Shown: positions 23,513-53,800 of the stretch, one piece after another
Layout of the letters: the number at the start of each line of letters is the position of its first letter
How positions within the stretch are numbered: position 1 is the first letter of the stretch
Assembly: GCA_047514575.1 (NCBI GenBank)
Contig: JAKZYH010000197.1
Span: 1 to 54,842, forward strand
DNA length: 54,842 nt
Source of the DNA: Acidobacteriota bacterium
GTDB taxonomy: Bacteria > Acidobacteriota > UBA6911 > RPQK01 > JAJDTT01
Direction: 5' to 3'
Program-made: the position numbers and the translations under genes
The notes under the pieces: generated by a model
What the model saw: only the letters and a program-made list of their open reading frames with translations
The model's database searches: none
What the model was told of the DNA's origin: nothing

Positions 23513-23655
23513 GAGGATAGGCGATATCGTGCGTCACTCCGTGGGGAAGGTCACTCCGTGGGGAAGGTCACTCCGTGGGGAAGAGTTGTCCAGCTCTCTC
23601 CTCGGAACCTGGGCTCATTTTGCTAACGGCTCAAGTCGTGCGCGGCTCTGTCGGA
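23513..23655 (+). repeat. interspersed ~110-nt repeat, copy B (with 17-bp tandem triplication)
   Basis: Collinear with 10706-10814 but carries three tandem GTCACTCCGTGGGGAAG units. Confidence 0.8.
23533..23583 (+). repeat. perfect 17-bp tandem repeat x3 (GTCACTCCGTGGGGAAG)
   Basis: Units at 23533-23549, 23550-23566 and 23567-23583. Copy A of the element has one unit. Confidence 0.9.
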
Positions 23656-23757: not shown

Positions 23758-23790
23758 AGTACCAGGTCACTACATCTGTGACCTGGTACT
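23758..23790 (-). terminator. 13-bp perfect hairpin abutting the CRTAC1 stop codon (no U-tract)
   Basis: AGTACCAGGTCAC-TACATCT-GTGACCTGGTACT. The right arm overlaps the stop codon by 2 nt. With no T-run it is not a canonical intrinsic terminator. Confidence 0.3.
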
Positions 23791-30707: not shown

Positions 30708-30876
30708 GTAGCCTGAGTCCTCGTTTCTTGATTCTACCTGAAGTCAGCCAGAAATGGACTAGAGAGTCGGGATTGGAGATACTGAAACACAAGGTGGCCC
30801 GGCGCGTAAAGTAGAAAAGGCGGCCTGGCCGTTTGTCGAGGCGTGTTTGGTCTTCCTGAAAACTGAGGTGAAGCCA

Positions 30877-31662
30877 ATGAAGAAAGTAGCGTTGGGAGTG
30901 GCAGCGATTTCGCTGCTGGCATTAACGCCCACCTGGGCAGGGAAATTCTGGGAGGAAGGCGATTTTCTCGAATGGACCGAGAAAGACGTGATCAAGATGC
31001 TCAACAAATCTCCCTGGGCACGCCAGGTCTCGATCAGTGTCCGGTCGACCGGTGGCCCGACTGGAACCACGCTTGGAACCGGACGTAGCGGCGCCAGAGC
31101 GCGCGTCGGCGGTATCGGCGGCGGCGGTGGTGGCGGCGGTGGTGGCCGTAGCGGTGGTGGTCGTAGCGGTGGTAGCGGCCCCGGTTTCCCTCCCTCCATG
31201 ACGCTGACGATCCGTTGGTATAGCGCCCAACCGGTAAAGAAGGCGGTGGCCAGAGCCCGTTTTGGGGATGCGGCAAACTCAGCCCCCGAGGCTCTCAAAC
31301 TATTGGAACCAGAGCTGACACATTACGTGATCGGCGTGTCTGGGCTTCCTGCGCGGATGGCACAAATGGACGAGGGGCGCCAGCGCTTTCTCTACGAGCA
31401 AATCAAGAAAGAAACCGTGCTCAAGATCAAGGGGCGTGATCCGATTCCAGCCCAGAATGTCGCCTTTGGAAGCGATCAGGCGCAATTGCTGGATGCCAAG
31501 ACCGGTCAGGCAGGCTTCGAGGTCTACATCTTTTTCTCCAAGGAGAACGAGATCACGCTCAAGGAGAAGAACGTCGAGTTCGTAACCCGGTTGATGGAAA
31601 GAAAGATCTCCAAGAAGTTCAAACTAAAGGATATGGTCTACCGCGGCGAGCTCGAGCTTTGA
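30877..31662 (+). CDS. secreted hypothetical protein with poly-Gly/RGG low-complexity insert
   Basis: Signal peptide MKKVALGVAAISLLALTPTWA (ATG 30877, GAGGTG upstream), a W..KDV..MLNKSPWA motif, and a GGIGGGGGGGGGGRSGGGRSGGSG tract encoded by GGY repeats. Confidence 0.65.
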   Translation: MKKVALGVAAISLLALTPTWAGKFWEEGDFLEWTEKDVIKMLNKSPWARQVSISVRSTGGPTGTTLGTGRSGARARVGGIGGGGGGGGGGRSGGGRSGGSGPGFPPSMTLTIRWYSAQPVKKAVARARFGDAANSAPEALKLLEPELTHYVIGVSGLPARMAQMDEGRQRFLYEQIKKETVLKIKGRDPIPAQNVAFGSDQAQLLDAKTGQAGFEVYIFFSKENEITLKEKNVEFVTRLMERKISKKFKLKDMVYRGELEL

Positions 31663-32107: not shown

Positions 32108-33499
32108 ATGTGCCGTAGTAATCAAGTGATTCCATGGGTTCTTTCCTGTTTCCTGCTAGCCATTCAGGTGCAACCGTTGTGGGCCGAAGCGCACGAAGAC
32201 AAGGACAGGCTCAAGCGCCTCGAAGAGAGACTGGCTCGGCTGGAATCCAATCTAGAGCGATTGATCGATGTGCTCGTTACTCAATCCGAGGGCGAGCCCT
32301 CGCAAGAGGCTCGCACCCAGCTCCGCTCCCTTTCCGAGGATGTCCAGGCAATCAGGACCGAAGTTCCAACCGAGGCCGCGGAAGCCCCGAAGGAGGTCGC
32401 CGCGGCGGTGCTGGAACCGCCTACGGTGGAAACGGTGCCTGCTGACGCAGCCGACGAAATCATCAATGTGCCCTACTCGGGCTACATGGAGATGCATATC
32501 AACCACGACCAGATCAATCCCACCACCTTGGACTTCCACCGATTCGTTCTTCTGTTCGGACACGGCTTCGGTGAGCGGATCCGGTTCTGGTCGGAGTTGG
32601 AACTGGAGCATGCCTTCGTCGAGGGGGGGGAAGCGAGTGGTGAGCTGGAGCTGGAGCAGGCCTATCTGGATTTTCTTATCGACCCCAAGTTCAACTTCCG
32701 AGCAGGAATGGTGCTGACACCGATTGGGATTATCAACGAGCGGCACGAGCCTCCGGCCTTCCACGGAGTGGAGCGTCCCTTCGTAGACACGGTCATCATT
32801 CCCTCTACCTGGTTTGGCCCCGGGGCCGGACTCGTAGGGGATCTGGGTAATGGCCTGCACTACAAGACCTACGTCATGGGATCTCTGGACAGCTCGTTCT
32901 TCTCAGCTGATGAGGGATTTCGTGACGGTCGTCAGAAGGGCTTTCTGGAAAACGGTCGCAACCTGGCCTGGACTGGCCGTCTGGAGTATCGTCCCCGGCC
33001 CGGGCTCAACCTGGGAACCAGCTTCTGGACAGGGGAAACCGGGTTCAGTTTTCGGGATCTCGACGGTCGTCTGAAGATGTTCGAGTTCGACGCGCGCTAC
33101 CGGGTCGGAAGGTTTGAGGGTCGAGGTCAGTTTGTCACGACCCACCTGGGAGATGCTGCCGAGATCAACCAAGCCATTCGTCGGCAGGTCGGAATCAACC
33201 CTAACATCGCCCGCGAAATGCGAGGTTTCTATCTCGAGGGAGCATCCAGCCTGGTTCCCTCCACTTTTCCCCACGATGTGGTCGCTTTCTACCGCTACGA
33301 GAGCTTCGACACCCAGTATCGCATGCCTCGAGGGTTCTTCTCGTTGGAGCAGTTCGACCGTGCAGCTCATGTCCTGGGGCTCACCTACTTTCCCCATCCT
33401 GATATTGCTTTGAAAGCCGACTACAACGTGATGGGGAATTCCAGCGACTTGATCGAGGCCCTCAATCGCTGGAACTTTGGTATCGGATGGTGGTTTTGA
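32108..33499 (+). CDS. putative outer-membrane beta-barrel porin (phosphate-selective-porin-like) with N-terminal coiled coil
   Basis: Signal peptide, coiled coil DRLKRLEERLARLESNLERL, alternating beta-strand pattern, and a C-terminal aromatic terminus ..NFGIGWWF. Confidence 0.65.
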   Translation: MCRSNQVIPWVLSCFLLAIQVQPLWAEAHEDKDRLKRLEERLARLESNLERLIDVLVTQSEGEPSQEARTQLRSLSEDVQAIRTEVPTEAAEAPKEVAAAVLEPPTVETVPADAADEIINVPYSGYMEMHINHDQINPTTLDFHRFVLLFGHGFGERIRFWSELELEHAFVEGGEASGELELEQAYLDFLIDPKFNFRAGMVLTPIGIINERHEPPAFHGVERPFVDTVIIPSTWFGPGAGLVGDLGNGLHYKTYVMGSLDSSFFSADEGFRDGRQKGFLENGRNLAWTGRLEYRPRPGLNLGTSFWTGETGFSFRDLDGRLKMFEFDARYRVGRFEGRGQFVTTHLGDAAEINQAIRRQVGINPNIAREMRGFYLEGASSLVPSTFPHDVVAFYRYESFDTQYRMPRGFFSLEQFDRAAHVLGLTYFPHPDIALKADYNVMGNSSDLIEALNRWNFGIGWWF

Positions 33500-37371: not shown

Positions 37372-39039
37372 CTAGTCCCCCGTCTTATCTGCTGTGACCG
37401 ACAGCCAGACCCTGAAGCTGGTCCCCTGTCCCAACTGGCTCTCCACCTCGATTCGCCCCTGATGTCTCTCGATGACCTGGTGGACGATGGATAGTCCCAG
37501 TCCGGTGCCGACGCCGACGCCTTTGGTCGTGAATCCAGCGTCGAAGATCTTCCCTAGATCCTCCTTGGGTATCCCCTTTCCCGTATCCCGCACCTCAACC
37601 AGGATCTCATCCTGGTGGGAAACGGTCTTGATAAAGATGTCACCTTCTCCTTCTATCGCTTGTGCTGCATTCATCAGAAGGTTCATGAAGGCCTGGTTCA
37701 GTTGTTTGGGATAGCAATGGACGAGTGGCAGGTCCCCGTAGTCCTTGTGGGTCAGAATGGCATTGCTCAACTGCCGCTCGAGCATAGACAGAGTACGGTC
37801 GAGACACTCATGTAGATCGACGCGACCGAACTCTGCCTCGTCCAAACGGGCGAATCTGCGAAGATCGGTCACGATCGTCCCGGCTCGCTCCACGGCTTCG
37901 ATGCTGAAGCCGGCCAGCTTTTCAAGGTGTTGAAGGATGCGGTTTGACTCACTTTCGGCGGCAATGACTTGCTCTCCCAGCGAGTCCTTCAATTTGACGA
38001 CAGCTCGCTGCGAAAGCTGGATGTTGCCCTTCAAAGCCCCCAGCGGCGTATTGAGTTCGTGCGCCACTCCGGCGACGAGCTGTCCCATTGCCGCCATGTT
38101 CGCGGAATGCACTAATTGTGCCTGGGTTTCCTGAAGCTTTTTGTAGGCGTCCTGCAGTTCGTGGTTGCGCCCTTCTAGATTACGGAAGTCCAGAAATCGA
38201 GCATAAGCGAGGGAAATCGCGTCGGCATAGACCTCCAGGGTCTTTAGTGTCTGTGGCGGCAGGTCCTTCTTAGCGAAGCTTTGCAGGCTCAGGCGGCCAT
38301 AGGAGAAGGGAACTACGACCCATGAGGTGGGCACTCTTACATCTTCGATTCCTGCTAGACCCCAGGATCGTCTCAGAAATTCTCGATGCCGATCCCACTC
38401 GTCGGCAGAGCCTTCTGCTGTCAAGATTCGGGGTTCTGGACCTAGTTCTGTGGACTCGTCCAGCTGGCACTGGCTGGAATAGACGTTCACGCCGGGAAGG
38501 AGGTCACGGATAGAGGGCGCTACTCCGTATTGCTCCTCCATCCATCCGGTCGTGACGGCATAGGTTTCGCACTGGGTTCGGTCCTGGTCGAAGATCTCGA
38601 TAGCACAGTAATCCGCGGACAGCCCTACATCGTGGAGTCCCTCCCACATGACCCCAGCAACCTTGAGAAGGTCTTCCGTACGACGCATGCCCTGGACCTC
38701 GGCTCGCACTCGCTCCACGATGAGTTGGCCGGTCAAGGCGAGATCGTGTTCGTCGGTCACCAGACGGCGCAGCTTCACGTCACCGGTGACCGTGGTCTGG
38801 CATGCCAGTCGGGTCTCCGGTTGGTAGTGGAACTGGTGGGCTACCGTGTCCTCTTTGGGATTCCTTTGGTTGCAGTGCTCCAGACCTTCGAGAATCAATA
38901 CGCGGCAGGTCGTACAACGCGTTCGCCCAAAGCACACGTGCGCGTGGGGAATCCCAGCCTGCAGCGAGGCCTGAAGAATCGTCTTCCCCTCACGGACCTC
39001 TATGGCTTTGTCATCAGGTAGATAGTGGAGTTTCGCCAC
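37372..39039 (-). CDS. soluble histidine kinase with N-terminal 2Fe-2S ferredoxin-like domain
   Basis: N-terminus KLHYLPDDKAIEVREGKTILQASLQAGIPHAHVCFGRTRCTTCRV...RLACQT (C-x6-C-x2-C...C). An uncharacterised region of about 190 aa follows. H-box VAGVAHELNTPLG, N/G boxes NLLMNAAQA, DTGKGI, GTGLGLSI. No TM segments. Confidence 0.85.
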   Translation of the reverse strand: MAKLHYLPDDKAIEVREGKTILQASLQAGIPHAHVCFGRTRCTTCRVLILEGLEHCNQRNPKEDTVAHQFHYQPETRLACQTTVTGDVKLRRLVTDEHDLALTGQLIVERVRAEVQGMRRTEDLLKVAGVMWEGLHDVGLSADYCAIEIFDQDRTQCETYAVTTGWMEEQYGVAPSIRDLLPGVNVYSSQCQLDESTELGPEPRILTAEGSADEWDRHREFLRRSWGLAGIEDVRVPTSWVVVPFSYGRLSLQSFAKKDLPPQTLKTLEVYADAISLAYARFLDFRNLEGRNHELQDAYKKLQETQAQLVHSANMAAMGQLVAGVAHELNTPLGALKGNIQLSQRAVVKLKDSLGEQVIAAESESNRILQHLEKLAGFSIEAVERAGTIVTDLRRFARLDEAEFGRVDLHECLDRTLSMLERQLSNAILTHKDYGDLPLVHCYPKQLNQAFMNLLMNAAQAIEGEGDIFIKTVSHQDEILVEVRDTGKGIPKEDLGKIFDAGFTTKGVGVGTGLGLSIVHQVIERHQGRIEVESQLGQGTSFRVWLSVTADKTGD

Positions 39040-39073: not shown

Positions 39074-39243
39074 AGCACCAAGATACAAGATACAAACAAA
39101 TCTCAAATTCCAAGCACCAAGTTCCAAACCTTGGGCGCCCCCACAGTTCCTCCGGTTTGGGATGGACGACCCTTGCTAGCGGCTCGAACTCAATTTGTGA
39201 TTTGGTGCTTGGAGCTTGTTTGTATCTTGTATCTTGGGGTTTG
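39074..39243. repeat. inverted pair of CAAGATACAAG-type repeats (MITE/REPIN-like)
   Basis: Perfect 22-nt arms CCAAGATACAAGATACAAACAA at 39078-39099 and its complement at 39216-39237. There is an inner 7-bp stem CCAAACC/GGTTTGG. Confidence 0.8.
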
Positions 39244-40425: not shown

Positions 40426-41067
40426 TCAACGAGCCGCCGTCTCGCCGCCTGACCCAACCAAGGTTGAAATGGAAACCGAGTAGGATCGATCGTCGCTGGA
40501 GCCGGCTACAATGGGCACCGCGAACTCAAACTCCGTCTCAACGAGAGTCGGCATGGAAGAACCTCGGCTCAGGTCTTGCGACCACTGGGTGGCAGCCAGC
40601 TCCAGGCGGAAGCCCTTGCTGGTATTGTTGAGCTCTCCCTGGGCAACGGGCAGAGAACCGATCCCATCCTCAGAGGAAACCTGAAAGCTCCAGCGATTGG
40701 TTCCAGAGCGAACCAGGGACTGCATCACGAATCGCAGTTGCCCATGCTCAGTCGTCTCGACTCTGATCCGGCCCAGAACGCTATTGTGAGAGAGAGCCGA
40801 AGGTATCAAGCTCTGGCTCTTCCCCAGGATGCTGAGACGATAGGGAGGCGCTGATTCGGGAGCCAGATGGAACTGCAATCTGAGGATGGAGCTCTCGCTC
40901 GTAGGCTGGGCAAGGATGCTCACCGCCACGCGCCGGCTGCCGGTTTGTGCAGCGTTGGTCCTTGAGGTGCTACACGATATCCACAGCAGAACCGTCACCG
41001 CCATGATGCCGGATCGAATAATCTTGACTCTGCGCGATCTGGATTCGCTGCTCCCTGCGATTTTCAT
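40426..41067 (-). CDS. cassette 1 small protein (213 aa), probable lipoprotein, paralog of 44899-45432
   Basis: Signal peptide ending LLWIS-C (lipobox-compatible). ..VAQGELNNTSKGFRLELAATQWSQDL...ETEFEFAVP aligns with small protein 2. Start overlaps the upstream stop (ATGA). Confidence 0.7.
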   Translation of the reverse strand: MKIAGSSESRSRRVKIIRSGIMAVTVLLWISCSTSRTNAAQTGSRRVAVSILAQPTSESSILRLQFHLAPESAPPYRLSILGKSQSLIPSALSHNSVLGRIRVETTEHGQLRFVMQSLVRSGTNRWSFQVSSEDGIGSLPVAQGELNNTSKGFRLELAATQWSQDLSRGSSMPTLVETEFEFAVPIVAGSSDDRSYSVSISTLVGSGGETAAR

Positions 41068-41945
41068 GGAGGAGCTTCTTTCACATTGATTCTGATCGCC
41101 ACTTCCACCACGGAGAACAAGGGATCGTTGCTTGAGATGGTCAAACTCCCGAATTTCAGTCCGACCTGCTTGGGATCGAAACTGATCACAACAGTCTTCG
41201 TGCCGCTGGGGGGTATGCTCACCGAACCAGGGGCGGCCATAAAGTCCTCAGGAGTGAGAGTGGCATCGAGAGTTTTCTTTCCCCGGTTGGTCAGGACGAT
41301 ATTCTCTGACACCACAGGTGAGCCGACAACTGCGTCGGGGAAAGCGATGCTTGGCCTCGAGATGGCAAGACGTGGCTCCTCGCTCGGCCTCACCTCCGGA
41401 AATTGGCCGAGTTGCTCGGGTTTGAGAACGATCTTCACCTTGGCTAAGCCCTTTACGAAAGTGACTCCGGGGGGCAACTCACTATCACTGTCCAAGCCTA
41501 CCAGGACCCCTGCAGTTGTTAGACCACCGGCCACGATGTGGATGGAGTTGCGACTGGCCGCGAGGCTCTCGGCACTATTGGCCTGGATGGTAAGGGTTGT
41601 CTGAATCTCATCTATTGTGTCTTCATCCAAGCTGGCCGTGATCGACTTGTTGACGACTTTTATTTCCCACCCGGTTTGATCGACGATTTCGGCGAGCTTC
41701 ATAGCAGTCAACTTCCCCTCAGTCACAACAGCAGTAACACTGACCGTCCTGATTTCGCCAGGAGCGAGGATATCCGGGACGGGTTTCACGACATCCGCGA
41801 CGATCGTGGCAACTGTGGGATCGCTGGCCCCATCTTCATCTTGCCTCTTGTTGCAGTCGCCAGCACTCGCGACGATGGCAATCCAACACAGTGTGAGAAT
41901 AAATCGCCAGTTCCTCTGGAATCCCGCTGTGCGAACTGCCTTCAT
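41064..41945 (-). CDS. cassette 1 choice-of-anchor-D domain protein (293 aa)
   Basis: The C-terminal ..IAFPDAVVGSPVSENIVLTNRGKKTLDATL...VSIPPSGTKTVVISFDPKQVGLKFGSLTISSNDP.. fits the choice-of-anchor-D/ASH-like pattern. N-terminal signal anchor. ATGA overlaps on both sides. Confidence 0.75.
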   Translation of the reverse strand: MKAVRTAGFQRNWRFILTLCWIAIVASAGDCNKRQDEDGASDPTVATIVADVVKPVPDILAPGEIRTVSVTAVVTEGKLTAMKLAEIVDQTGWEIKVVNKSITASLDEDTIDEIQTTLTIQANSAESLAASRNSIHIVAGGLTTAGVLVGLDSDSELPPGVTFVKGLAKVKIVLKPEQLGQFPEVRPSEEPRLAISRPSIAFPDAVVGSPVVSENIVLTNRGKKTLDATLTPEDFMAAPGSVSIPPSGTKTVVISFDPKQVGLKFGSLTISSNDPLFSVVEVAIRINVKEAPP

Positions 41946-44242
41946 TGTGTCTCCACCTGGGATGGAAACTGGACTACGATTTCCGAGTCACGGAACGAAC
42001 TCCATTGAGCAGAACGAACCTCAGACGTCGTGTTGACCATGGTTCCGGAGACTGCCGGAGGTACGTATATCTGCATCTCGAACTCGGTTGAGAGCGTGCG
42101 ATCCAACAGCGAGAAGCGGGCGGAGGGCAGCTCGAAAACGATCCCTCCATCGCCGTTCTGGGAGAGAAAAAGGGTGGCTTCTGAAGGGTTTTCCAGTGTC
42201 CTCTTGTAATCGAAGAAATGACGCTTCGCGCCCTCCTCCTCTTGCCCTCCATAGACCAGAAGGTACTTCGTCAAGAAGCCGTTCGAATTGATCACCAGGG
42301 AGGCTGTCCCGGCCACTTGGTTGATGGTCAGTGGATCGGTCCGGATCTGGCCCTGGTCCAGAGTCACCTTCAGGGAAGTCAATGCAACATCTTGTGGGAC
42401 TCGCAGGACAACATCGCCCCGACTCTGTTTGAGTAGGATCACGGGGGCCACCGCCTGGCCCGCCGAGAACTCGGGAAAGAAGATCCCGGCCTCCGGTCTG
42501 AAGAGAACGAAGAAGTGGTGATCATTGCTGACGGGCCCTCCGCTTTCCACTCTCACCGGCCCTGTGACTGCGTCCTCTGGAACCCGTACCATCAGCTCGC
42601 TGGAACCTGCACTCTCGACCTGGCCTTCAACCCGGCCTCCGTCGACATTCTGGAAGGTGACCAGGTTGGCCGCGAGATCGGGATCGAAGCCGGACCCCCT
42701 GAGCTCTATTAGCTCTCCCACCGCTCCCTGCACGGGAAGGATCCGCTCCAGCCGGGGAGCTCCTGCTGGAGGTGCCACTGTTGTGAAGGTCCGACTCTCC
42801 TCCTTGGTCAGGGGCAGGTCAGAATCCTTCAGGACCGTCACCGAGGTGGATGTCGCCACCAAATCGAACGACTCGCCCACCGTACTTGGAAGCTGGAGTG
42901 CTCCGTCGCCCAGAATGATCTCTTGATCGAAGGTAGTTTCAACCACCGCCTCCTGGGGCGGCTGCGGGAAGTCCTCCAGCGCGAGCACGGTGGAGCCTGC
43001 CTCCAGCGTGCCCCTCGCCTGGAGGATACTGCCGGCAGCGTCGTCCTGGCCCGGGATGGCGACGTCCTGTGTGCTCCGTCCTTCGAACGCCACCTTGGTG
43101 GGTGAGAGGACCTCGGTGATGCTCAGCGCTTGGAAATCTCTGGCTTTATTGACAGCGATCAACCTTCCCACACCCATCAGCTGGCCCTCCGACAGTTGGG
43201 CGAAGTCGGGTTCGATCTTGTCCATTCGGACCTCGGTCCTGACGAGGCGCATGTCGAGGACATTGTGGTGCACAACAATGGTGAATCCCGGCTTGGAGCC
43301 GGCCAGAAGATTGTGAGGCAGGACGTTGAAGTTGGGCCGGAAGCGCGGTTCTATGACCAAGATAACGGAGTCCTTGGTGGCCGGTGGATCGCCACTATCT
43401 TCGACTTTCACTGTGGCGGCTCCGGGTACCAGCCCGGTCAAATCGATCACAGTACCTTGCAGGCTAGCCTGGAGAATTGCCTGGTCTTCCTCGGCCAGCG
43501 GCTTCAGTTTGTAGGGTGGTGTTCCTCCTCCAACGACCAGGGTTTCCTTGCCACTACCGGGAGGCAGCAAGAGCGTGGAATCCTCGGGGAAGAGTTCCAG
43601 TGGAACCAAGCCGGCCGTGAAATCCTTCACCTGGAATCCGACGCCGTTGCTCATCAAACCCAGGACCCCCACCGTCACGCGATAGACCTGGGAGCCTAGA
43701 TCTTCCGGAACCCTCACGACAAGGGAGTTGCTGGTGGCACCGATGACCTCTCCCGCTTGCGTCTGGTCCAAACGGGAAAACAAAACCAGGTTTCGCGCCA
43801 GCACCGGGCTGAAATGCTCGCCGACGAGGGTCAAGAGGCTGCCTCGAGGTGCCCTACCAGGAACGATGAATCGAATCTCGGGTGTCCCCTCCGGTACCAC
43901 CGGATCGCATTGAGCCAGTTGGGAGAATCCAAGATTGTTTCGCAGCAGCTCGACTATGTCGAGAACATCTACTTTGCCATCCTGGTTGACGTCCGCGTTG
44001 GTCAGAGCCTCTCCACCCAGAGTTTTCTTCTGCAGGATGTGGGCCTGGATCAGGACCTGGTCGCGGACGTCCCTCAGGCCATCCAGGTTAGCATCTCCAG
44101 TGCAAAGAGTTGAGGACGCTGAGGCAACTGAACCCCGCGGAGCCACCGGCTCCCTGAGCAGTTTAGGGAGACACAAGAGCGCAACCGCACTCAGCATCAG
44201 GAATGAGAAAAAGCGACGGCGATGGCTCTCAGAGACTTTCAT
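41942..44242 (-). CDS. cassette 1 large surface protein (766 aa): signal anchor, N-terminal dockerin-like module, two IPT/TIG domains, Ig-like region
   Basis: GDANLDGLRDVRD...ADVNQDGKVDVLD is a duplicated DxNxDGxxxxxD Ca-loop pair (dockerin type I pattern). IPT-like PEIRFIVPGRAPRGSLLTLVGEHF and PRLERILPVQGAVGELIELRGSGF. Collinear paralog of 46378-48708. Confidence 0.8.
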   Translation of the reverse strand: MKVSESHRRRFFSFLMLSAVALLCLPKLLREPVAPRGSVASASSTLCTGDANLDGLRDVRDQVLIQAHILQKKTLGGEALTNADVNQDGKVDVLDIVELLRNNLGFSQLAQCDPVVPEGTPEIRFIVPGRAPRGSLLTLVGEHFSPVLARNLVLFSRLDQTQAGEVIGATSNSLVVRVPEDLGSQVYRVTVGVLGLMSNGVGFQVKDFTAGLVPLELFPEDSTLLLPPGSGKETLVVGGGTPPYKLKPLAEEDQAILQASLQGTVIDLTGLVPGAATVKVEDSGDPPATKDSVILVIEPRFRPNFNVLPHNLLAGSKPGFTIVVHHNVLDMRLVRTEVRMDKIEPDFAQLSEGQLMGVGRLIAVNKARDFQALSITEVLSPTKVAFEGRSTQDVAIPGQDDAAGSILQARGTLEAGSTVLALEDFPQPPQEAVVETTFDQEIILGDGALQLPSTVGESFDLVATSTSVTVLKDSDLPLTKEESRTFTTVAPPAGAPRLERILPVQGAVGELIELRGSGFDPDLAANLVTFQNVDGGRVEGQVESAGSSELMVRVPEDAVTGPVRVESGGPVSNDHHFFVLFRPEAGIFFPEFSAGQAVAPVILLKQSRGDVVLRVPQDVALTSLKVTLDQGQIRTDPLTINQVAGTASLVINSNGFLTKYLLVYGGQEEEGAKRHFFDYKRTLENPSEATLFLSQNGDGGIVFELPSARFSLLDRTLSTEFEMQIYVPPAVSGTMVNTTSEVRSAQWSSFRDSEIVVQFPSQVETQ

Positions 44243-44898: not shown

Positions 44899-45432
44899 TC
44901 ATCGAGGAGAGACGATGGCCTCGGACCAGCTACCATCGGCTGGGTCAAGGGGCCAGGTGGAGAGAACGAAATTCAGCTCGCCGCTGCTGGGTCTCCGGAC
45001 TGGGACCTGAAAGACGAACTCAGCGCTTGTCCTTTGATGGAGACTCTGGTTTCGAGCAAGGTCCAGCAGCCACTCGGTGCCCACAACATCCAGAACGAAG
45101 CCCCCAACCGCGTTCTTGATCTCCCCGCGAGCAACTGGCACGTGGGAAAAGTTGGGATCGTCTGGGAAGATGGCCAGACTGCAGCGGTTGTCGCCGAGTC
45201 TGGACTCAATCTGCGCGGTCAGACCAAGTGTGCGTCCATCTGCAGTATGCAGACTGATTCGCGCCAGACGCGATCCTCTTGACAGACCCGCCAACTCTAC
45301 ATACTGGTTTTCGCCTCTGATCCTTAGCTGGCGAGGAAGCGAATAATCGGGATTGCGATGAATCCGGAAAGCCACAGGGCCTCCCCTCTTCTCAAGATCC
45401 TGGGCATGGGTAACCGATGCCGCAAGCGTCAA
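44899..45432 (-). CDS. cassette 2 small-protein module (177 aa as called; no own signal peptide; in frame with the corrected upstream gene)
   Basis: ..VARGEIKNAVGGFVLDVVGTEWLLDL...SAEFVFQVP aligns with 40426-41067. The only start is a TTG. The same frame stays open upstream to the G8 tract at 45659-45666. Confidence 0.55.
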   Translation of the reverse strand: MTLAASVTHAQDLEKRGGPVAFRIHRNPDYSLPRQLRIRGENQYVELAGLSRGSRLARISLHTADGRTLGLTAQIESRLGDNRCSLAIFPDDPNFSHVPVARGEIKNAVGGFVLDVVGTEWLLDLARNQSLHQRTSAEFVFQVPVRRPSSGELNFVLSTWPLDPADGSWSEAIVSPR

Positions 45433-45517
45433 CCCTTGTCCCGAACGCCTTCCCGCTCCTGTCGCTGCCTCCGCGGCAGTGGATGTGCCTCGCAGGTTGA
45501 TAGTCCAAGGTGAATTT

Positions 45518-46381
45518 CTATCGTTGCTCTTGATGGTCAGTAAAGCACTCTTGGGTCCGGCGGGAGCCCGAGGGAAGAATTTCCATCGATAAGTAAAGGA
45601 CCACCCAGGAGGGATCGTCAGAGGGGTCCCGCCACCTCGGCGAGTGAAGTCGAGAAAAGGGGGGGGTCTCGTTGGACGTAGCCTGTATCTCAGTCATCAC
45701 CACGTCCTCATTGCCGCGGTTCAGCAATTTGATGGACAGGCTCTTGGGAGGAAGGCCGATCACTCCGCTTCCGAAGTCGGCCGTGGCGCTGGGTGACACC
45801 AGCAGAAACGGTCCTTGTGCTGTGAACGCTTGCAGATCAGGGGAGTCGGCATTCGCCAAAATTCTGACCGTTGCTTGGCCTCCGATAATCCGAGTCACGT
45901 TTTCCACTTGCTCAGCTCTTATGGACGGGAATGCATCCACGAACGCGTCGTAGAAGAGACGGGTGTTAATGACTTGCGTGGCATAGGGGATGGGGAAGCC
46001 GAACAGGCGCAGCTGCTCTATGCGGGTGAAGTCCACAGCCTTCGAGGTAAACCCAAGGATGGTCTGCTCACTTTCTCGGTTTGTGAAAGAGGCAGTCTCT
46101 ATCCCGGTTGCATCCCACAAGGGTGTCCACAAGAAGGGGGGACAAGGAAGCGCTCCACAGGTGGCTGAGACATTGAACGTGTCACTAGCCTCAGGATCCA
46201 CCCCTATGATGGAGGGATCCATCGTCACTCTCATCGTAATGATCTCGGGAGACGCTTGTCCATCCTCGGCGTTGCGGCAGCAATCTTCTTCCTGTGGTGC
46301 CAGGTTGAACAAACCCACCAGCACCAACAGCACCAGCAGCTTGATCTTCTTTGACAGGACCGAGGAATCACCGACCTTCAT
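45518..46381 (-). pseudogene. cassette 2 choice-of-anchor-D protein, frameshifted at a C8 (plus-strand G8) tract
   Basis: After ..KLLNRGNEDVVMTEIQATSNETPP the called frame gives an unrelated tail. Removing one C restores FLDFTRRGGGTPLTIPPGWSFTYRWKFFPRAPAGPKSALLTIKSNDRNSPWTINLRG, the expected domain end. Start ATG 46381 overlaps the upstream stop (ATGA). Confidence 0.75.
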
Positions 46382-48708
46382 GGACCTGCAAACTCCCTTT
46401 CCACCAGCACGACCATCTCCGAACCCTTGAAGAAAGTCCATTGCTCTGACCGTACCTCGACCGTCATCTTGATCGGACCATCCATTGTCTCCGGCAGCGA
46501 ATAGATCTTCTTTTCGAAACTAATCGTCAAGGAGCTGCCCAACACAGACAGGCTTTCTGCCTTCATATCAAAGATTATGCCCGGGCCCTCCGGATCCTCG
46601 GAAACAAACAAGGTGGTCACCGGAGACCTATCGACTTCTTCTTTGACTTCGAAGAAGTGTCTTCCCGGTCCGCTTTCCGTCTCCTCTTGACCCCCATAAA
46701 ACAGCTGCCACATGGTTTGAAAGCCACTGTTCCTCACCTGGGACGCCGTTCCGGCGGACACATCGATTTCGAGTTCGGACGTATCCAGACTTCCGTCGTC
46801 GACAAAGACCATGAGGGAGTCGAACCCGACCTCACCCGGCTCCTGGGCCAAAAAGATGATCGGAGCAAGAGACTCCTGGGCTTGCTGAGTCCGAAGAGTC
46901 AGTCCATCCTCCTGAAGCTCCCCCTCAATCGGCTCTACGTCGAGCTCACCCGCCGAAAAGAAGATGCCGGTGTCGGGCTGGAACAAGACCCAGAACTGGT
47001 AATCGTTGCTTTGCTTCCCGTCGATCGCAACGCTGACCGGTCCAGTGATTGCGCCTTCCGGTACATAGACTAGTAGCTCCTCTGCTGAAGCAGTCTCCAC
47101 GGGAGCTTCAACCCTGGTGTTATTGGTCCCTCTGAATGTCACCTGATTGTTCTCACCTACAGGATCGAATCCTGAGCCTGAGATCCTCACCTTGTGACCG
47201 ATTTCACCCTGAAACGGAAGCAGACGCTCAACGCGTGGTGCACCGGAGGCGGGTGCGACGGTCGTGAAGGTCCTGGTGACGGTTTTGGTGAGGGGGACTT
47301 TCCGCCCTTCCAATACCGTGGTTGAGGTGAAAGTGGCCACGACATCGAAGGTCTCGCCAACAGCATCGGGGAGACCGATCACTTGATCATTCAGGATTGT
47401 CTCGCTCACGAAACTCCCCCTGACGACACCCTCTTCTGGTGGTTCCGGGATTTGTCCTAGAGTCATCACCGCAGAACCCTTGGCGAGAGTGCCCTGAGCG
47501 CCCAAGCCTACTCGGCTGTCTATCGAGCGTAGAACATCGAAACTCAGATTTTCGGCGGAATTGATACTGGTCACCTGCAGGTACTGGAAATCCGGGGTCC
47601 CAGAAACTACCTGCTTCCCGATACCAAGAATCCCTCCTTCTTCCAGGCTGGAGAAGTCGGTCGAGACCTTTTCGATGCGAAACTCTGAATGCAGCAAGCG
47701 CATGTGGTTACTGAATTGGTTCACGCTGATCGTAAAACCGGGGACCGAGCCTGCCAGCAAAGTATGCGGCGTGATGTTGAAGTTAGGACTGAAAAGCGGT
47801 TCTCTGACGTTCACGGTGGCCGTGTCCGTGGCAGGTGGTTCTGCACTGTCTTCCAGATCCAGCCTGACTCTGCCTGCCTTCAGGCCTCTTACTTCGATGA
47901 CGTTGCCGTCCAGTTCCGCCACCGCAACTTCTTGATCCTGCTCGGAGAGGGGGGTCAACTTGTAGGGTGGAGTGCCTCCACCGATCACATAGACGTCTTC
48001 GCCGCTGCCCGGGGGCAAGAGCAAAGTGGCACTGGATGGAAGCACATCAAGCCGAGGGGCTGAGGAAAGAACCCGGTAACCTACGCTGTTGCTTTGATCC
48101 TCGTCGACGGTGACGCTCACCGCGTAAAGCCTACTCGTCAGATCTTCCGGGATAACACCCTGGATGACCGATTCGGAGGCGCTGCTGACCTGCGCCTGGA
48201 TCATCGCCTCTGGGCGATAAAAGAGAACCAGGTTTTCACCCGGGTCGGTGCTGAATCCACGACCGAGCAGTGTGAAATTTGTCCCCTGTGGTCCCGAGAC
48301 GGGTGAAATGATCCGGATCTGGGGAGTACCAGGGGGCATGCTGATGACACAACTGGCGAGTTCCGATTGCCCTAGATTGTGGAGGAGCAGGCCCACAATG
48401 TCGTGGACATTGACGGAGGTGTCCTGGTTGACATCGGCGTTTCTCAGGGCGTCTCCGCTCAAAGCCCTGTCTCCCAGGATGTGGGCCTGGACGAGAACCT
48501 GATCCCGTACGTCTCGCTCTCTATCCAGGTTGGCATCGCCGGGACAAGCCGGAATCACCTGCAGAACGGGTGCGCCTGAAGCCGAGGGTTGACCTGAGTT
48601 GGTGCCTCGCTCCGAGAACAGGCGCACCAGGGAAAAGGCCAACAGCATCAGCAGAGAGAGCTCCAATGTACCTACCAGCAACCGACGTATGGATGGATAG
48701 CTGCTCAT
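46378..48708 (-). CDS. cassette 2 large surface protein (776 aa): signal anchor, degenerate N-terminal dockerin-like module, two IPT/TIG domains
   Basis: GDANLDRERDVRD...ADVNQDTSVNVHD. Collinear similarity to 41942-44242 along the full length (e.g. TRTFTTVAPASGAPRVERLLPFQGEIGHKVRISGSGFDP vs SRTFTTVAPPAGAPRLERILPVQGAVGELIELRGSGFDP). Confidence 0.8.
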   Translation of the reverse strand: MSSYPSIRRLLVGTLELSLLMLLAFSLVRLFSERGTNSGQPSASGAPVLQVIPACPGDANLDRERDVRDQVLVQAHILGDRALSGDALRNADVNQDTSVNVHDIVGLLLHNLGQSELASCVISMPPGTPQIRIISPVSGPQGTNFTLLGRGFSTDPGENLVLFYRPEAMIQAQVSSASESVIQGVIPEDLTSRLYAVSVTVDEDQSNSVGYRVLSSAPRLDVLPSSATLLLPPGSGEDVYVIGGGTPPYKLTPLSEQDQEVAVAELDGNVIEVRGLKAGRVRLDLEDSAEPPATDTATVNVREPLFSPNFNITPHTLLAGSVPGFTISVNQFSNHMRLLHSEFRIEKVSTDFSSLEEGGILGIGKQVVSGTPDFQYLQVTSINSAENLSFDVLRSIDSRVGLGAQGTLAKGSAVMTLGQIPEPPEEGVVRGSFVSETILNDQVIGLPDAVGETFDVVATFTSTTVLEGRKVPLTKTVTRTFTTVAPASGAPRVERLLPFQGEIGHKVRISGSGFDPVGENNQVTFRGTNNTRVEAPVETASAEELLVYVPEGAITGPVSVAIDGKQSNDYQFWVLFQPDTGIFFSAGELDVEPIEGELQEDGLTLRTQQAQESLAPIIFLAQEPGEVGFDSLMVFVDDGSLDTSELEIDVSAGTASQVRNSGFQTMWQLFYGGQEETESGPGRHFFEVKEEVDRSPVTTLFVSEDPEGPGIIFDMKAESLSVLGSSLTISFEKKIYSLPETMDGPIKMTVEVRSEQWTFFKGSEMVVLVEREFAGP

Positions 48709-49553: not shown

Positions 49554-50726
49554 TCATATGAGGATGATGACGGGGAATGTTGTCAACAGACTGCCCTGCA
49601 GCTTCAACGCTACGGCCGAGATGGGAGCGGACGAAGTGATTTCAATTGAGCCTTGAAATTCGGCCACTCCAGAGAGCTGATCGAACAGCTCGGTAGCGAA
49701 CTGTGGGGAATGCTCTCCGGGCTCAAGGGTGATCATCTCCTGCTCTCGCTCCGTTCCCGCCTCGTCCCGACGGGTGAGCGTGATCTGGATCGTCTGAGAA
49801 GAAAAATTAACGAAGGCAATTCCGGTGTTGGTACCTCCCTGGTCGAACAGGACTGGGATGGAGAATCGGGCGCCAACCGGTGAGGCCCCAACGCCGGCCT
49901 CGCTGGTGACATTCCCGGCCCCGTCCCGCTGCGTAAAGATCAAGGTGCCGCCCAACGGACCAGTGGCATCCAGCAAAGCGTACCCGGCCGAAATATCTCC
50001 GCTTCCGTCCGTTCTCAGGAAAATAGATCCACCAGCTGGGACGGTGAACTCGAAACTCGAATCACTGGTGCCATCTGTCAGAGTCACCACAAACGGTGTT
50101 CCGTCGGACTTGAAAAGACTCACTCTGCCATTTGAGGCCGCCGCGGTGCGATTGACGAAAATGAGTGTCACTACGAAGCTACCGCCCTCGAAGGTGCCGT
50201 TGGCAACCTGCGAGAAAATCAACCGATTCTCCCCCTCGATAGGAGTGTTTCCCGAGTCGCTGATGGTCACGACTCCCTCGTTGGAAACCATCGGGACGGC
50301 GCTTCCGTTCGTATCTGAGGCCTGAATCTCTGAAGGCTCCAGGGTGGTCGAGGAGCCGAGAGCCGCATCTGCTGCCACCTCAAAAACGATGCTGACCACC
50401 GAGCCGGGTCCGGGCGTCATCGATGCGAGAGAGCCCGAGAAGATCACAACCGTGATTTTTCCGTCCTCCAGGTTGGACCCCACGCTGTGATCGGTCAGGG
50501 CGCTGCCTGCCAGCACCGAACCCTCGGCAGGGATGGAGAGGAAAGTCGTATTGAAGGTCAGCGCAAACTGGATCGGCGTGACGTCCTCTCCGTCGCTGAT
50601 TGTCACGGGCACAATCACCTTGGTCCCGGGAGCCGCATTGACGTCCGGAACGCTGAGCGTAATCTGTGCCAGCGCCAACTCTGTCGTCAAGACCAGCAGC
50701 GCTATGAAGGAAAGCTTCCTCATCAT
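49554..50726 (-). CDS. secreted cohesin-domain protein with C-terminal beta-sandwich domain of unknown function
   Basis: Signal peptide ..ELALA-Q. ITLSVPDVNAAPGTKVIVPVTISDGEDVTPIQFALTFNTTFLSI...GSVVSIVFEVAADAALGSSTTL fits the cohesin fold pattern. First gene of the operon. Confidence 0.7.
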   Translation of the reverse strand: MMRKLSFIALLVLTTELALAQITLSVPDVNAAPGTKVIVPVTISDGEDVTPIQFALTFNTTFLSIPAEGSVLAGSALTDHSVGSNLEDGKITVVIFSGSLASMTPGPGSVVSIVFEVAADAALGSSTTLEPSEIQASDTNGSAVPMVSNEGVVTISDSGNTPIEGENRLIFSQVANGTFEGGSFVVTLIFVNRTAAASNGRVSLFKSDGTPFVVTLTDGTSDSSFEFTVPAGGSIFLRTDGSGDISAGYALLDATGPLGGTLIFTQRDGAGNVTSEAGVGASPVGARFSIPVLFDQGGTNTGIAFVNFSSQTIQITLTRRDEAGTEREQEMITLEPGEHSPQFATELFDQLSGVAEFQGSIEITSSAPISAVALKLQGSLLTTFPVIILI

Positions 50727-50801
50727 GTCCCCCTGTTTATTGCCAGCAAGCGAGAGGCCCTATGCAAATAGACAATCGATTATCCAACCCCACCCAGTTT
50801 G

Positions 50802-50837
50802 GCATAGAATTCTATGCTCTTGAGAAGACACGATCAA
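50802..50837 (-). promoter_or_regulatory. perfect 16-nt palindrome GCATAGAATTCTATGC overlapping a candidate promoter TTGATC-17-TAGAAT for the cohesin operon
   Basis: Palindrome at 50802-50817. Minus-strand -35 at comp. 50832-50837 and -10 at comp. 50809-50814. It lies in the 163-nt divergent intergenic region. Confidence 0.4.
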
Positions 50838-50889
50838 GACCTGCATCGTTGACCGAACCAGAGGAGCCAGAAACAGTGAGGGAATCGGA

Positions 50890-53800
50890 ATGCACAGCTC
50901 AAGCGTGAACTCAAGCATGCTGAAGGGTCTCAGGTGGCGCTGCATCGGACCGCCCCGGGGAGGCCGCGTCGTCGCGGTAGCCGGCCATCCCTCCGATCCA
51001 ATGGTTTTCTACTTCGGAGCCTGCGCAGGAGGCGTCTGGAAGACCACGGACGGCGGAACCTACTGGGAGAATGTCTCTGATGGGTTTTTCAATTCGTCTG
51101 CCATCGGGGCTCTCGCCGTGGCCGAGTCGGATCCCAACGTAGTCTATGCAGGAACGGGTGAGACCACGATTCGAACCGATGTTTCCTACGGCGACGGGGT
51201 CTACAAGTCCATGGACGGAGGCCAGACCTGGCGACATGTGGGATTGGCCGATACTCGCCACATTGGCGAGATTCGCATCCATCCAAGGAACCCCGATCTG
51301 GTGTACGTAGCGGCACTGGGCCACGCCTTCGGACCCAATCAGGATCGCGGTGTCTTTCGGTCTCGAGACGGCGGCGAGAATTGGGAAAAGGTCCTCTTCC
51401 GCAGCGAGAAGGCAGGTGCCGTGGATCTGGCGATGGATCCTCACAATCCCAGCATTCTCTACGCCGCTATCTGGGAGGCGTATCGGAACTTCTGGACCCT
51501 CTCCAGCGGCGGTCCCGACAGCAGTCTCTATAGATCTACAAATGGGGGTGAAACCTGGTCGGAGATCAGTGGCCAACCCGGTCTGCCGGTCGGCCTCAAG
51601 GGAAAGATGGGAATTGCCGTCTCGCCGGCTCGTTCCGGACGTGTCTGGGCGATCATCGAAGCGGAAGAAGCGGGCGTTTATCGCTCTGACGATGGAGGCG
51701 AGAACTGGGAGCTGATGACGAACAACCGGGATCTGCTCAATCGTCCCTGGTACTACTGTCACATCTTTGCCGATCCGCAGCACGCAGACACGGTCTATGT
51801 CACCAACTTGAACATGTGGAAGTCTACCGATGGAGGGCGTAACTACACCCAGATTACGACGCCCCACGGCGACAACCATGACCTCTGGATCGATCCTCGG
51901 AACCCACAGCGGATGATCGAGGGAAATGACGGGGGGGCCTGCGTCTCGTTCAACGGAGGGGAGACCTGGTCCACCATCTATAACCAGCTCACCGCGCAGT
52001 TCTACCGCGTCGACGTCGACAACCGTTTCCCCTACCGGGTCTACGCGACTCAGCAGGACAACTCAAGCATCAGCGTTCCCAGTGCCACCGAATATGGAGG
52101 GATTCCCTGGACCGAGTGCTATGCCGTCGGCACGGGTGAAAGTGGGCATATTGCCGTACACCCATCCGATCCAGACATCGCTTACATTGGCGCCGTGGGG
52201 AGCTCACCCGGGGGAGGCGGCGCCCTACAGCGCTACCATCATCGGACTCGGCAGATTCGATTGGTGACCGTGTGGCCCGAAACCGATCAAGGTTGGGCTT
52301 CGATCGACCACAAATATCGCTTCAACTGGACCTTCCCGATCGCCTTTTCTCCCCACGATCCGCAGATCCTCTACGCCGCCGGAAATCGCCTTTTCCGAAC
52401 TCTGGACGAAGGGACCAACTGGGAGGCGATCAGCCCGGACCTCACCCGGAAGGATGTGTCTAAGCTGGGAATATCTGGTGGGCCCGTTACCAGCGATTCC
52501 AGTGGCGCCGAGCAATATGCCACCATTGTTGCGTTTGCGGAATCGCCTCTGGAAAAGGGTCTGCTGTGGGCTGGAACCGATGACGGCCTGGTACAGGTTT
52601 CCCGAGACGAGGGGCAACACTGGCACGACGTAACACCACCTGAACTCCCTGAATGGTCCTGGGTCGGCTCGATTGAAGCTTCGCCCCATGTTGCTGGAGC
52701 CGCATTTGTCGCCGCTACGCGATACAAGCTGGACGATTATGAGGCATATCTCTACCAGACAGTCGACTACGGTGAGACCTGGGAGACTCGCAGTGAAGGA
52801 TTCCCCAAGGGTGAGATCAGTCGAGTAATCCGCCAAGATCCGGTGCAACCAGGATTGTTGTACGTGGGAACCGAAACCGGGATCTGTCTCTCCCTCGACG
52901 AAGGCGATAGTTGGTCTCGTCTCGAATCCAACCTGCCCGTCGTCCCGGTCTACGACTTGAAAATCAAGGACGATGATCTGGTGGCTGCGACCCATGGCCG
53001 TTCCTTCTGGATCCTGGACGACTTGACGCCTCTTCGCCAGCTCTCGCAAGACGTGGCGGACGCTTCGGCCCACCTGTTCGCACCCCGCCCCTCCTACCGC
53101 CGCTGGCTGCAATGGGGTGTCGGGATTCATCGAGGCCCGGGCAAGTGCTATATGCTGGCTCTAGGAGCTGCGGGAGCATTCTATGAGACCAAATCAGCCG
53201 GGGGCGAGTCTGGACTGATAGGGCTCGATGTGGGCGAGAACCCGCCGCACGGAGTTATCGTCTATTACGCTCTCAGTGAGGTTCCCGATGAACTCGTGAC
53301 CCTCTCCTTCCTGGACCTCGAGGGAGCTTTGATCAAGGCAATAAATAGCCAGGACGCACGATCGAAGGACCACCCTGAATCCCAGCTGTCGGACGATAAG
53401 GAAGGCGGACCCTCCCTGCCGGTTGAGAAAGGTTTAAACCGTTTCGTCTGGGATATGCGTTACCCCAATGCTGAGAAGGTGCCGGGAGATCTCATCACCG
53501 AGAAGATGGAGACCGGGCCACTGGCTCCACCCGGAAGCTACCAGGTGCAGCTTCAGGTTGCTGGTCTAACCTCGAGCCGCTCCTTCGAGATCCTCAAGGA
53601 TCCCAGGGTATCCGCCACCCAGGAGGACCTCGACGCTCAGTTCGCTCTCTGGAGCCAGATTCGGGACAAACTCTCGGATACCCACCGGCACATCAACCAA
53701 CTCAGGAAGATCACCGCCCAGTTGAAGCAATGGGAGAACCGTCTGCAGGATTCCCCAGACTCCGAGCCCTCCCAGTCAGTGGCGAAGGCTGCACGGGACC

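Follow-up and report, generated by a model that had tools for sequence, protein, structure and literature searches.

The second choice-of-anchor-D-like gene (A2) of an uncultured Acidobacteriota bacterium is interrupted by a +1 frameshift at a run of eight cytosines. This frameshift is real and lineage-specific, and most likely marks a gene—encoding the two-domain fusion A2-B2—that was recently broken within a fast-turnover surface cluster. The gene lies in the window, the whole 54,842-nucleotide stretch of contig JAKZYH010000197.1 (assembly GCA_047514575.1) that was analysed, and belongs to the second of two paralogous cassettes. An earlier note on this DNA had raised three options: an ON/OFF switch by slipped-strand mispairing, a fixed pseudogene, and a homopolymer assembly error. 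The pseudogene option fits best, in the form of a recent, population-wide loss (eight of eight assemblies are out of frame); with moderate confidence, we favour a recent loss of function in all sampled populations, at a slippage-prone tract.

Cassette 2 consists, in order, of T2, the broken A2, and B2 (Table 1). T2 contains a TIG domain and a sub-threshold Dockerin_1 match (21.7, against a cut-off of 22.9), and T1, its counterpart in cassette 1, is a dockerin protein. A2 starts at ATG 46381 (MKVGDSS..), in an ATGA overlap with the TGA of the upstream 776-aa gene; cassette 1 is arranged alike. Genes encoding a cohesin-domain protein, lgt, and TIG/dockerin proteins lie nearby.

Table 1. Coordinates of cassette 2, its C tract and the paralogous cassette 1 in the window.
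Feature	Position	Strand	Remark
C8 homopolymer (GGGGGGGG; G8 on the + strand)	45659..45666	(-), coding	+1 frameshift site; A2 codons 239-241 (T-P-P)
T4 run adjoining the C tract	45655..45658	(-)	In one assembly (C9T3), C replaces the first T
A2 N-terminal part, frame 0, residues 1-241	45659..46381	(-)	Signal-peptide-like N-terminus, lineage-specific region, first half of Ig-like domain; 53-64% identical to P0003/P0002
Out-of-frame 46-aa tail and stop of the called 287-aa product	45518..45658	(-)	Without family match
+1 frame: second half of Ig-like domain (FLDF..KSND..INLRG) and low-complexity linker (STAAEAATGAGRRSGQG..)	45433..45657	(-)	
B2 domain, same +1 frame as A2 second half	44899..45432	(-)	B1 paralog, without own signal peptide
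SD-like GGAGG (45380-45384) and GTG 45375	45375..45384	(-)	Start used by gene callers, which treat B2 as a gene of its own (158 aa)
T2 (776 aa, TIG/dockerin-like), which opens cassette 2	46378..48708	(-)	Intact in all assemblies
Cassette 1, paralogous comparison set	40426..44242	(-)	T1 41942-44242, A1 41064-41945, B1 40426-41067

Examination of the reading frames bears out the earlier description of the break. The G8 run is found exactly where it had been placed, and frame 0 of A2 reads ..IQATSNETPPF before passing, directly after ..SNETPP, into an unrelated tail (FSRLHS...HQEQR*) that ends with the stop at 45518. The called 287-aa product has no NCBIfam match, and its 46-aa tail matches no family. 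If the tract is instead read as C7 or C10, the sequence continues as ..TPP(P)FLDFTRRGGGTPLTIPPGWSFTYRWKFFPRAPAGPKSALLTIKSNDRNSPWTINLRG.. and stays open, without a stop, through the linker and into the 44899-45432 ORF, giving a protein of 493/494 aa; as had also been proposed, the frame with one C fewer is collinear with the paralog, the alignment of A1 with the corrected A2 (33% over 100 residues) crossing the break. Over 253 codons, the corrected frame contains no internal stop, versus 6-7 in each of the other two frames. Off-frame stop densities in the neighbouring T2 gene are 2.3-5.2% per codon, from which we estimate the chance of such a long open frame at ~1e-6 to 3e-3. Since two orthologs align strongly through the break and past it, the corrected (+1) frame is the real, ancestral coding frame of A2. 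Position-specific GC content, calculated over the short post-shift segment, gave no decisive frame signal.

The corrected A2-B2 protein matches the NCBIfam choice_anch_D model NF012200 (26.7 bits, E 6e-6) over residues 187-289; residue 241/242, where the frame breaks, therefore lies midway through the Ig-like domain. Corrected A2 also shares the pattern F..I.PG....F.P...G.....L.I.SND with choice-of-anchor D/HYDIN-VesB-CFA65-like Ig domains (PF22544). The curated cut-off of NF012200 is 45 bits; A1 scores 43.4 bits, and passes the gathering score of Pfam PF22544 (HYDIN/VesB-like Ig; 29.2 vs 25.5). Given that both A1 and corrected A2 fall below 45 bits, the label "choice-of-anchor-D" used in the earlier note holds as a resemblance, and not as curated family membership. 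A Pfam search with corrected A2-B2 yielded a sub-threshold DUF1573 match only, and neither the N-terminal 185 residues of A2 nor the B domain matches a described family.

A2 carries a hydrophobic N-terminal segment, IKLLVLLVLVGL. Unlike B1, A1, A2 and T2, B2 has no hydrophobic N-terminus (best 12-residue Kyte-Doolittle mean of 0.4, against 2.4-3.0 for the other four). The AlphaFold model of P0002, a natural A2-B2 fusion from a related lineage, is all-beta and of moderate quality, with a mean pLDDT of 58 and values of 70-89 across the greater part of the B domain (residues 190-290). In Foldseek, this model matches the HYDIN PapD-like domain 2e6j (target-length-normalised TM-score 0.63, rmsd 3.0 A, 103 columns), as well as the streptococcal AgI/II and SdrG adhesins and RbmA. 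These are generic tandem Ig-like beta-sandwiches, too unspecific to assign B a particular function. The predicted architecture is consistent with a beta-sandwich protein of two domains that is secreted or lies at the surface, and the cohesin, lgt and TIG/dockerin neighbours point to a putative cell-surface assembly.

In cassette 1, A and B are separate genes, as the earlier note had it: A1 and B1 overlap by an ATGA at 41064-41067, and B1 has a hydrophobic N-terminus of its own. B1 and B2 are 32% identical (E 3e-19), and the B family comprises five clusters in the whole of a protein collection of 15 billion proteins (5.8 billion clusters). The proposed fusion of A2 with the downstream protein is upheld by P0002, which runs across the junction as one continuous ORF, and by a linker Ka/Ks of 0.26 (see below). 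Given the single ORF of P0002, the A2-B2 fusion is natural, rather than a by-product of the frame correction. Of the two properties that had been ascribed to the 44899-45432 ORF, the lack of a signal peptide stands, while the TTG start does not: gene callers use GTG 45375, preceded at a distance of 4 nt by an SD-like GGAGG. Both this SD and the GTG are missing in the sister lineage, L015. B2 as an independent gene was considered and rejected, given that it has no export signal and that its SD/GTG is unconserved in the sister lineage. A scan for promoters and terminators gave consensus-level matches only, to which we attach no weight.

A query with the corrected fusion against the 5.8-billion-cluster collection returned just three clusters. 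The closer relative, P0002 (contigs L015/L016, from two independent assemblies), has an identity of 63% and encodes mid-A2, the Ig domain, the linker and B2 to its end. The L015 lineage is close to that of the window: the cohesin-gene fragment has a Ka of 0.08 versus the window, and a Rieske gene follows downstream in the same order. A deletion of ~3.7 kb in this sister lineage has removed lgt, T2 and the A2 N-terminus, and A2, from about residue 90 on, now directly adjoins the 3' part of the cohesin gene; the A2 remnant contains an in-frame stop (NIEY*RLFGF). The more distant relative, P0003 (L006-L014), is a stand-alone gene of 319 aa with 53% identity, and its ortholog in L018 (a GTDB representative, "MAG: Acidobacteriota bacterium") is likewise stand-alone (~299 aa from the query-aligned start). 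Both end shortly past the Ig domain, with no B homolog nearby, and IS66 elements lie directly downstream in several assemblies. A scan of JGI metagenomes with the A2-B2 alignment found no relative; a scan of GTDB genomes found a single distant ortholog, carried by an Acidobacteriota MAG, and no conspecific genome.

Comparison of the tract site across these relatives reveals the origin of the C run. Both outgroups (L015/L016 and L006-L014/L018) read ACC TTC GAC, where the window reads ACC CCC CCC TTT TCT CGAC. The T4 run and six of the C's thus constitute a net insertion of 10 nt (3n+1) in an Ig-domain loop, specific to the window lineage. Since both outgroups lack a tract at this site, the tract is derived and specific to the window species, and not a conserved family feature. 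The earlier note had proposed looking for the same break in orthologous loci; it is not seen there, both related lineages being without the tract altogether. P0002 and P0003 are continuous across the site, where the window sequence needs a 1-nt correction.

Exact-protein look-ups recovered seven further assemblies of the locus. The eight same-species assemblies are about 99.9% identical over the locus and each carries private SNPs, indicating that they represent distinct populations. Two of them, both Logan contigs, show a short divergent stretch near one end. The tract reads C8T4 in six of the eight (the window, L001, L002, L004, L005 and L027), C9T4 in L003, and C9T3 in L017, the last by a boundary T-to-C change that leaves the total length as it was. 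At the consensus level, all eight are out of frame and the disruption is fixed. The in-frame 493/494-aa allele does not occur in the protein collection, where the 90%-identity cluster holds only products of 287, 287, 287 and 254 aa; the 254-aa member (P0005) is the product of the C9T4 strain, and ends in a different tail (13 aa, versus 46 aa). In a 6.8-kb alignment of five assemblies, the tract accounts for two of the five variable sites.

Indels were compared over ~40 kb of the window, against four to five conspecific assemblies. Besides those in the tract, the differences consist of tandem-repeat copy changes (at ~23570, ~31140 and 39095), a +G near a contig start, and a +T at 50470 that is common to L002/L004 and splits the cohesin gene. 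The window contains a second G8 run (32623-32630), which lies inside an intact 463-aa gene and is constant across the assemblies covering that site; ten 7-base runs are also all constant across covering assemblies, and the genic ones leave their genes intact.

Selection on the C7-corrected window gene was estimated against L015 by the Nei-Gojobori method. Ka/Ks is 0.35 for the whole A2-B2 gene: 0.29 before the shift, 0.50 in the second half of the Ig domain, 0.26 in the linker, and 0.35 in B2. For the flanking cohesin fragment, the value is 0.17. The range of 0.26-0.50 reflects earlier constraint, and neither relaxed selection nor further lesions are apparent downstream (no stops in 253 codons), within-species SNPs being few. 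A Ka/Ks of ~0.35 in the corrected frame, together with the 253 open codons, indicates that the break is recent. The absence of downstream lesions means that the break is young or that the gene is no pseudogene, and, with no second lesion downstream, the break may be reversible. The neighbouring surface-cluster genes are decaying likewise in other strains and lineages, judging from (i) the cohesin-splitting +T in L002/L004, (ii) the deletion and stop in the sister lineage, (iii) the missing B domain in the distant relatives, and (iv) the IS66 elements downstream.

The favoured loss of function would have proceeded as follows. The ancestral cassette 2 encoded a secreted two-domain protein, consisting of a signal peptide, a lineage-specific N-terminus, the Ig domain of A2, a linker, and an all-beta B2. 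The net 10-nt insertion in the Ig loop then turned ACC-TTC into ACC CCC CCC TTT TC, creating C8T4. As 10 is 3n+1, translation shifts in the middle of the Ig domain and stops 46 codons on, and the second Ig half and the signal-less B2 are no longer made within an exported protein. This out-of-frame state is the consensus of every sampled population of the species, and the tract, being long enough to slip, is among the few sites that differ between strains. The truncated product is probably non-functional, the frameshift event presumably recent, and the frameshift unlikely to be kept as a switch. Against the young-pseudogene reading, the tract differs between assemblies, as that of a contingency locus would, and its eight bases place it among the G/C lengths that usually vary in Neisseria (PMC5084427).

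Two other explanations concern the length of the tract itself. The tract could in truth have an in-frame length (C7 or C10), with C8 and C9 produced by miscalling of the homopolymer. We consider this distinctly improbable, even though the tract is among the two longest G/C runs in the window and its two deviating alleles—including the length-preserving boundary shift of C9T3—are typical of homopolymer consensus errors, on contigs whose names look like those given by long-read assemblers (our reading of the names only). The exact C8T4 sequence recurs in six assemblies from different samples and apparently from different assemblers, among them a pair of k-mer-based Logan contigs and one "METAG-scaffold" that belongs to a separate BioSample, and no assembly has an in-frame length. 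An in-frame truth would require the identical wrong call in all six, making a simple assembly error unlikely; so does the constancy of the other G8 and the ten 7-base runs, which gives no sign that long homopolymers are miscalled elsewhere. Indels between the assemblies are otherwise, bar the shared +T and one +G, tandem-repeat copy changes. The assembly-error option of the earlier note is therefore disfavoured, by C8T4 in six of eight assemblies and by the constancy of all other runs of at least 7 bases. The C9T4 and C9T3 alleles may nonetheless stem from noise in the consensus; hypermutability would then be less well supported, and the frame would remain unrestored. Hypermutability belongs to the reading of A2-B2 as a contingency gene, in which slipped-strand mispairing of the poly-C tract toggles the secreted protein ON (C7/C10) and OFF (C8/C9), with the sampled populations mostly OFF. 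Several observations would accord with such a switch: the mutable 8-base G/C run sits within the sequence that codes for a secreted Ig-like protein, it supplies two of the five variable sites in 6.8 kb (five assemblies) and is present in two lengths, and the 253 downstream codons are still open. In N. meningitidis, most tracts of at least 8 nt vary (PMC5084427), and M. tuberculosis glpK is switched by reversible frameshifts in a 7C tract (bioRxiv 10.1101/717272). Still, we think the switch unlikely. The ON allele occurs in none of the eight assemblies and nowhere in the protein collection; C8T4, C9T4 and C9T3 are all OFF, and so the switch proposed in the earlier note is not demonstrated. Neither related lineage has a tract at the site, so that long-term maintenance is not indicated. 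The window contains two G8/C8 matches, where dinucleotide-preserving shuffles give 5.2 +/- 3.3; runs of this kind are thus not enriched, and the C8 tract does not exceed chance expectation for the window. The second G8, moreover, is invariant. Finally, the same cluster has non-repeat inactivating lesions elsewhere, and the C9 variants may be long-read noise. Since any C8 run slips, rare in-frame revertants must exist.

Two further explanations accept the tract as it stands and give the C8 allele a functional product. In the first, the C8 allele would still give full-length A2-B2, because the ribosome slips by +1 (tRNA-Pro on CCC-U) or RNA polymerase slips on the C run. CCC-N sites readily undergo +1 slippage, the CCC CCC UUU context would let tRNA-Pro re-pair in the +1 frame, and the downstream frame is long and open. 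Set against these points, the slip site is followed by no slow or stop codon (CCC-UUU), has no SD-like stimulator upstream (the sequence there being GAGACC), and shows no predicted downstream structure (fold z-score -0.11) and no Rfam match. The C9T4 allele would need a shift in the opposite direction (-1), the relatives encode the protein in one frame without a tract, and rescue would be leaky, at the percent level at best. The combination of slippery site, stimulator and conservation in orthologs that characterizes prfB-like programmed +1 frameshifts was not found, and we regard recoding as very improbable indeed. The other possibility is that the frameshift is an adaptive un-fusing, yielding a useful truncated A2 alongside a B2 that is translated separately from GTG 45375. 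The arrangement has a model in cassette 1, where A and B are separate genes, and the GGAGG 4 nt upstream of the GTG, together with the choice of this start by gene callers, speaks for it. Nevertheless, truncation occurs in the middle of an Ig beta-sandwich, the out-of-frame tails vary between alleles (46 aa vs 13 aa), B2 lacks the export signal that B1 has, and the SD and GTG are unconserved in L015; un-fusing thus strikes us as a highly remote prospect.

The A2-B2 frameshift is a fresh instance of a well-known kind of feature, and is chiefly useful for correct annotation: a single A2-B2 gene, marked as frameshifted, should take the place of the 287-aa and 158/177-aa calls, and the B domain should not be treated as an independent cytoplasmic protein. 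Beyond this, the locus illustrates on a small scale how a fast-evolving surface cluster restricted to one Acidobacteriota lineage (TIG/dockerin, Ig-like, B domain and cohesin) turns over, with fusion, splitting, deletion and breakage of its genes between close relatives. It would gain wider importance only if ON/OFF mixtures were seen at the read level, which would be evidence that homopolymer phase variation occurs in an environmental phylum. In a true switch, a poly-C tract of recent origin would turn the export of an Ig-like/B-domain fusion on and off within a dockerin/cohesin-type surface cluster of a free-living, uncultured member of the Acidobacteriota, with populations mostly OFF. Such a switch would be a contingency tract caught at birth, and would extend the phase variation of surface proteins by homopolymers from host-adapted pathogens to an environmental phylum.

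Among known systems, the poly-G/C contingency genes of Neisseria, Haemophilus and Campylobacter are alike in that an 8-base G/C run lies in an ORF of secreted or surface type, where a change of +/-1 shifts the frame, and in that tract length appears to differ between closely related genomes. A2-B2 differs from them in that no ON allele is seen, the tract is unconserved in relatives, and there is no local enrichment; moreover, the organism is an uncultured environmental member of the Acidobacteriota, and not a host-adapted pathogen. The 7C tract of glpK resembles that of A2 as a coding poly-C run in a GC-rich bacterium, in which +1C abolishes function and the frame can be regained by further indels. 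In glpK, however, the wild type is in frame and isolates show both states, whereas A2 shows out-of-frame states only and its tract is a new insertion. Frameshift pseudogenes of dispensable surface-protein families, as in the reported lineage-associated decay of Campylobacter autotransporter genes (PMC7168839), are similar in involving a lineage-specific frameshift in a fast-evolving secreted gene, other members and neighbours of the cluster being deleted or broken in related lineages. A2 is distinguished by a single lesion and an intact downstream frame, which argue that the A2 event is very young and, in principle, reversible.

The surface-gene cluster that holds A2-B2, the secreted fusion gene of cassette 2 broken by the C8 frameshift, contains a second strain-specific frameshift. 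Two further conspecific assemblies (L002 and the Logan contig L004) carry an additional T at position 50470 (CCTGG to CCTTGG), outside any repeat tract; with this insertion, the cohesin-domain gene becomes two frames of 114 and 288 aa. The same gene is touched by another difference between assemblies: both Logan contigs (L004 and L005) diverge from the window by ~10% across positions 50500-51066 (~550 nt), an interval comprising the intergenic region and the 5' end of the cohesin-domain gene, and are near-identical to it outside these limits. Judged from this pattern of divergence, the interval looks like a recombination tract.

Length changes elsewhere in the window were also recorded. The second G8 run, which served as the control for the C8 tract at 45659-45666, is invariant, with no length change in any of the four other assemblies; a Pfam search with the gene that contains it returned no match. 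The GGC/GGT-rich repeat is 12 nt longer in assembly L020 and 6 nt shorter in L022, and the products of its host gene measure 247, 259, 261 or 265 aa across assemblies. The 17-nt repeat has one copy fewer in L021 and a 6-nt change in L023. Finally, in conspecific assemblies L001 and L003, a 7-nt sequence (TTGTATC) upstream of the HisKA/Fer2 gene (37372-39039) is duplicated at position 39095.

Features of the window and of related contigs (L-numbers)
Feature	Position	Strand	Context or remark
Cohesin-domain gene	49554-50726	-	389/390 aa
Second G8 run	32623-32630	+ (gene)	within 463-aa gene 32108-33499; gene intact
GGC/GGT-rich tandem repeat	31098-31179	- (gene)	inside gene called at ~30759-31500; copy number varies
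Perfect 17-nt tandem repeat, three copies	23533-23583		between ORFs 20649-23105 and 23789-26164
SD-like GGAGG and GTG, 4 nt apart	45375-45384		inside A2-B2 linker region
Paired IS66-family transposase and DruA-domain (PF14236) genes	L006 9224-11338; L007 9250-11738; L009 4069-9192

The sister lineage (L015 and L016) has undergone a deletion of ~3.7 kb, with the loss of lgt and the entire T2 gene. At around residue 90, A2 is fused straight onto the 3' portion of the cohesin-domain gene (L015 1-700, and L016), and the A2 remnant contains an in-frame stop after the deletion junction (NIEY*RLFGF). In the more distant related species (contigs L006, L007 and L009), the IS66/DruA pairs lie immediately 3' of the A2 ortholog, in multiple copies and varied orientations.

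Gene callers report a 158-aa B2 because the SD-like motif sits 4 nt 5' of a GTG; at this site L015 has a GTA codon and no GGAGG. Residues 127-180 of the cassette 1 paralog B1 (gene 40426-41067) weakly resemble segments of two contigs of that related species (L007 7849-7992 and L008 2717-2860; tblastn E 0.005-0.008, 37% over 54 aa). These segments are the C-termini of T2 orthologs, a resemblance suggesting that the B domain may have been derived from the C-terminal domain of a TIG/dockerin-like T protein.
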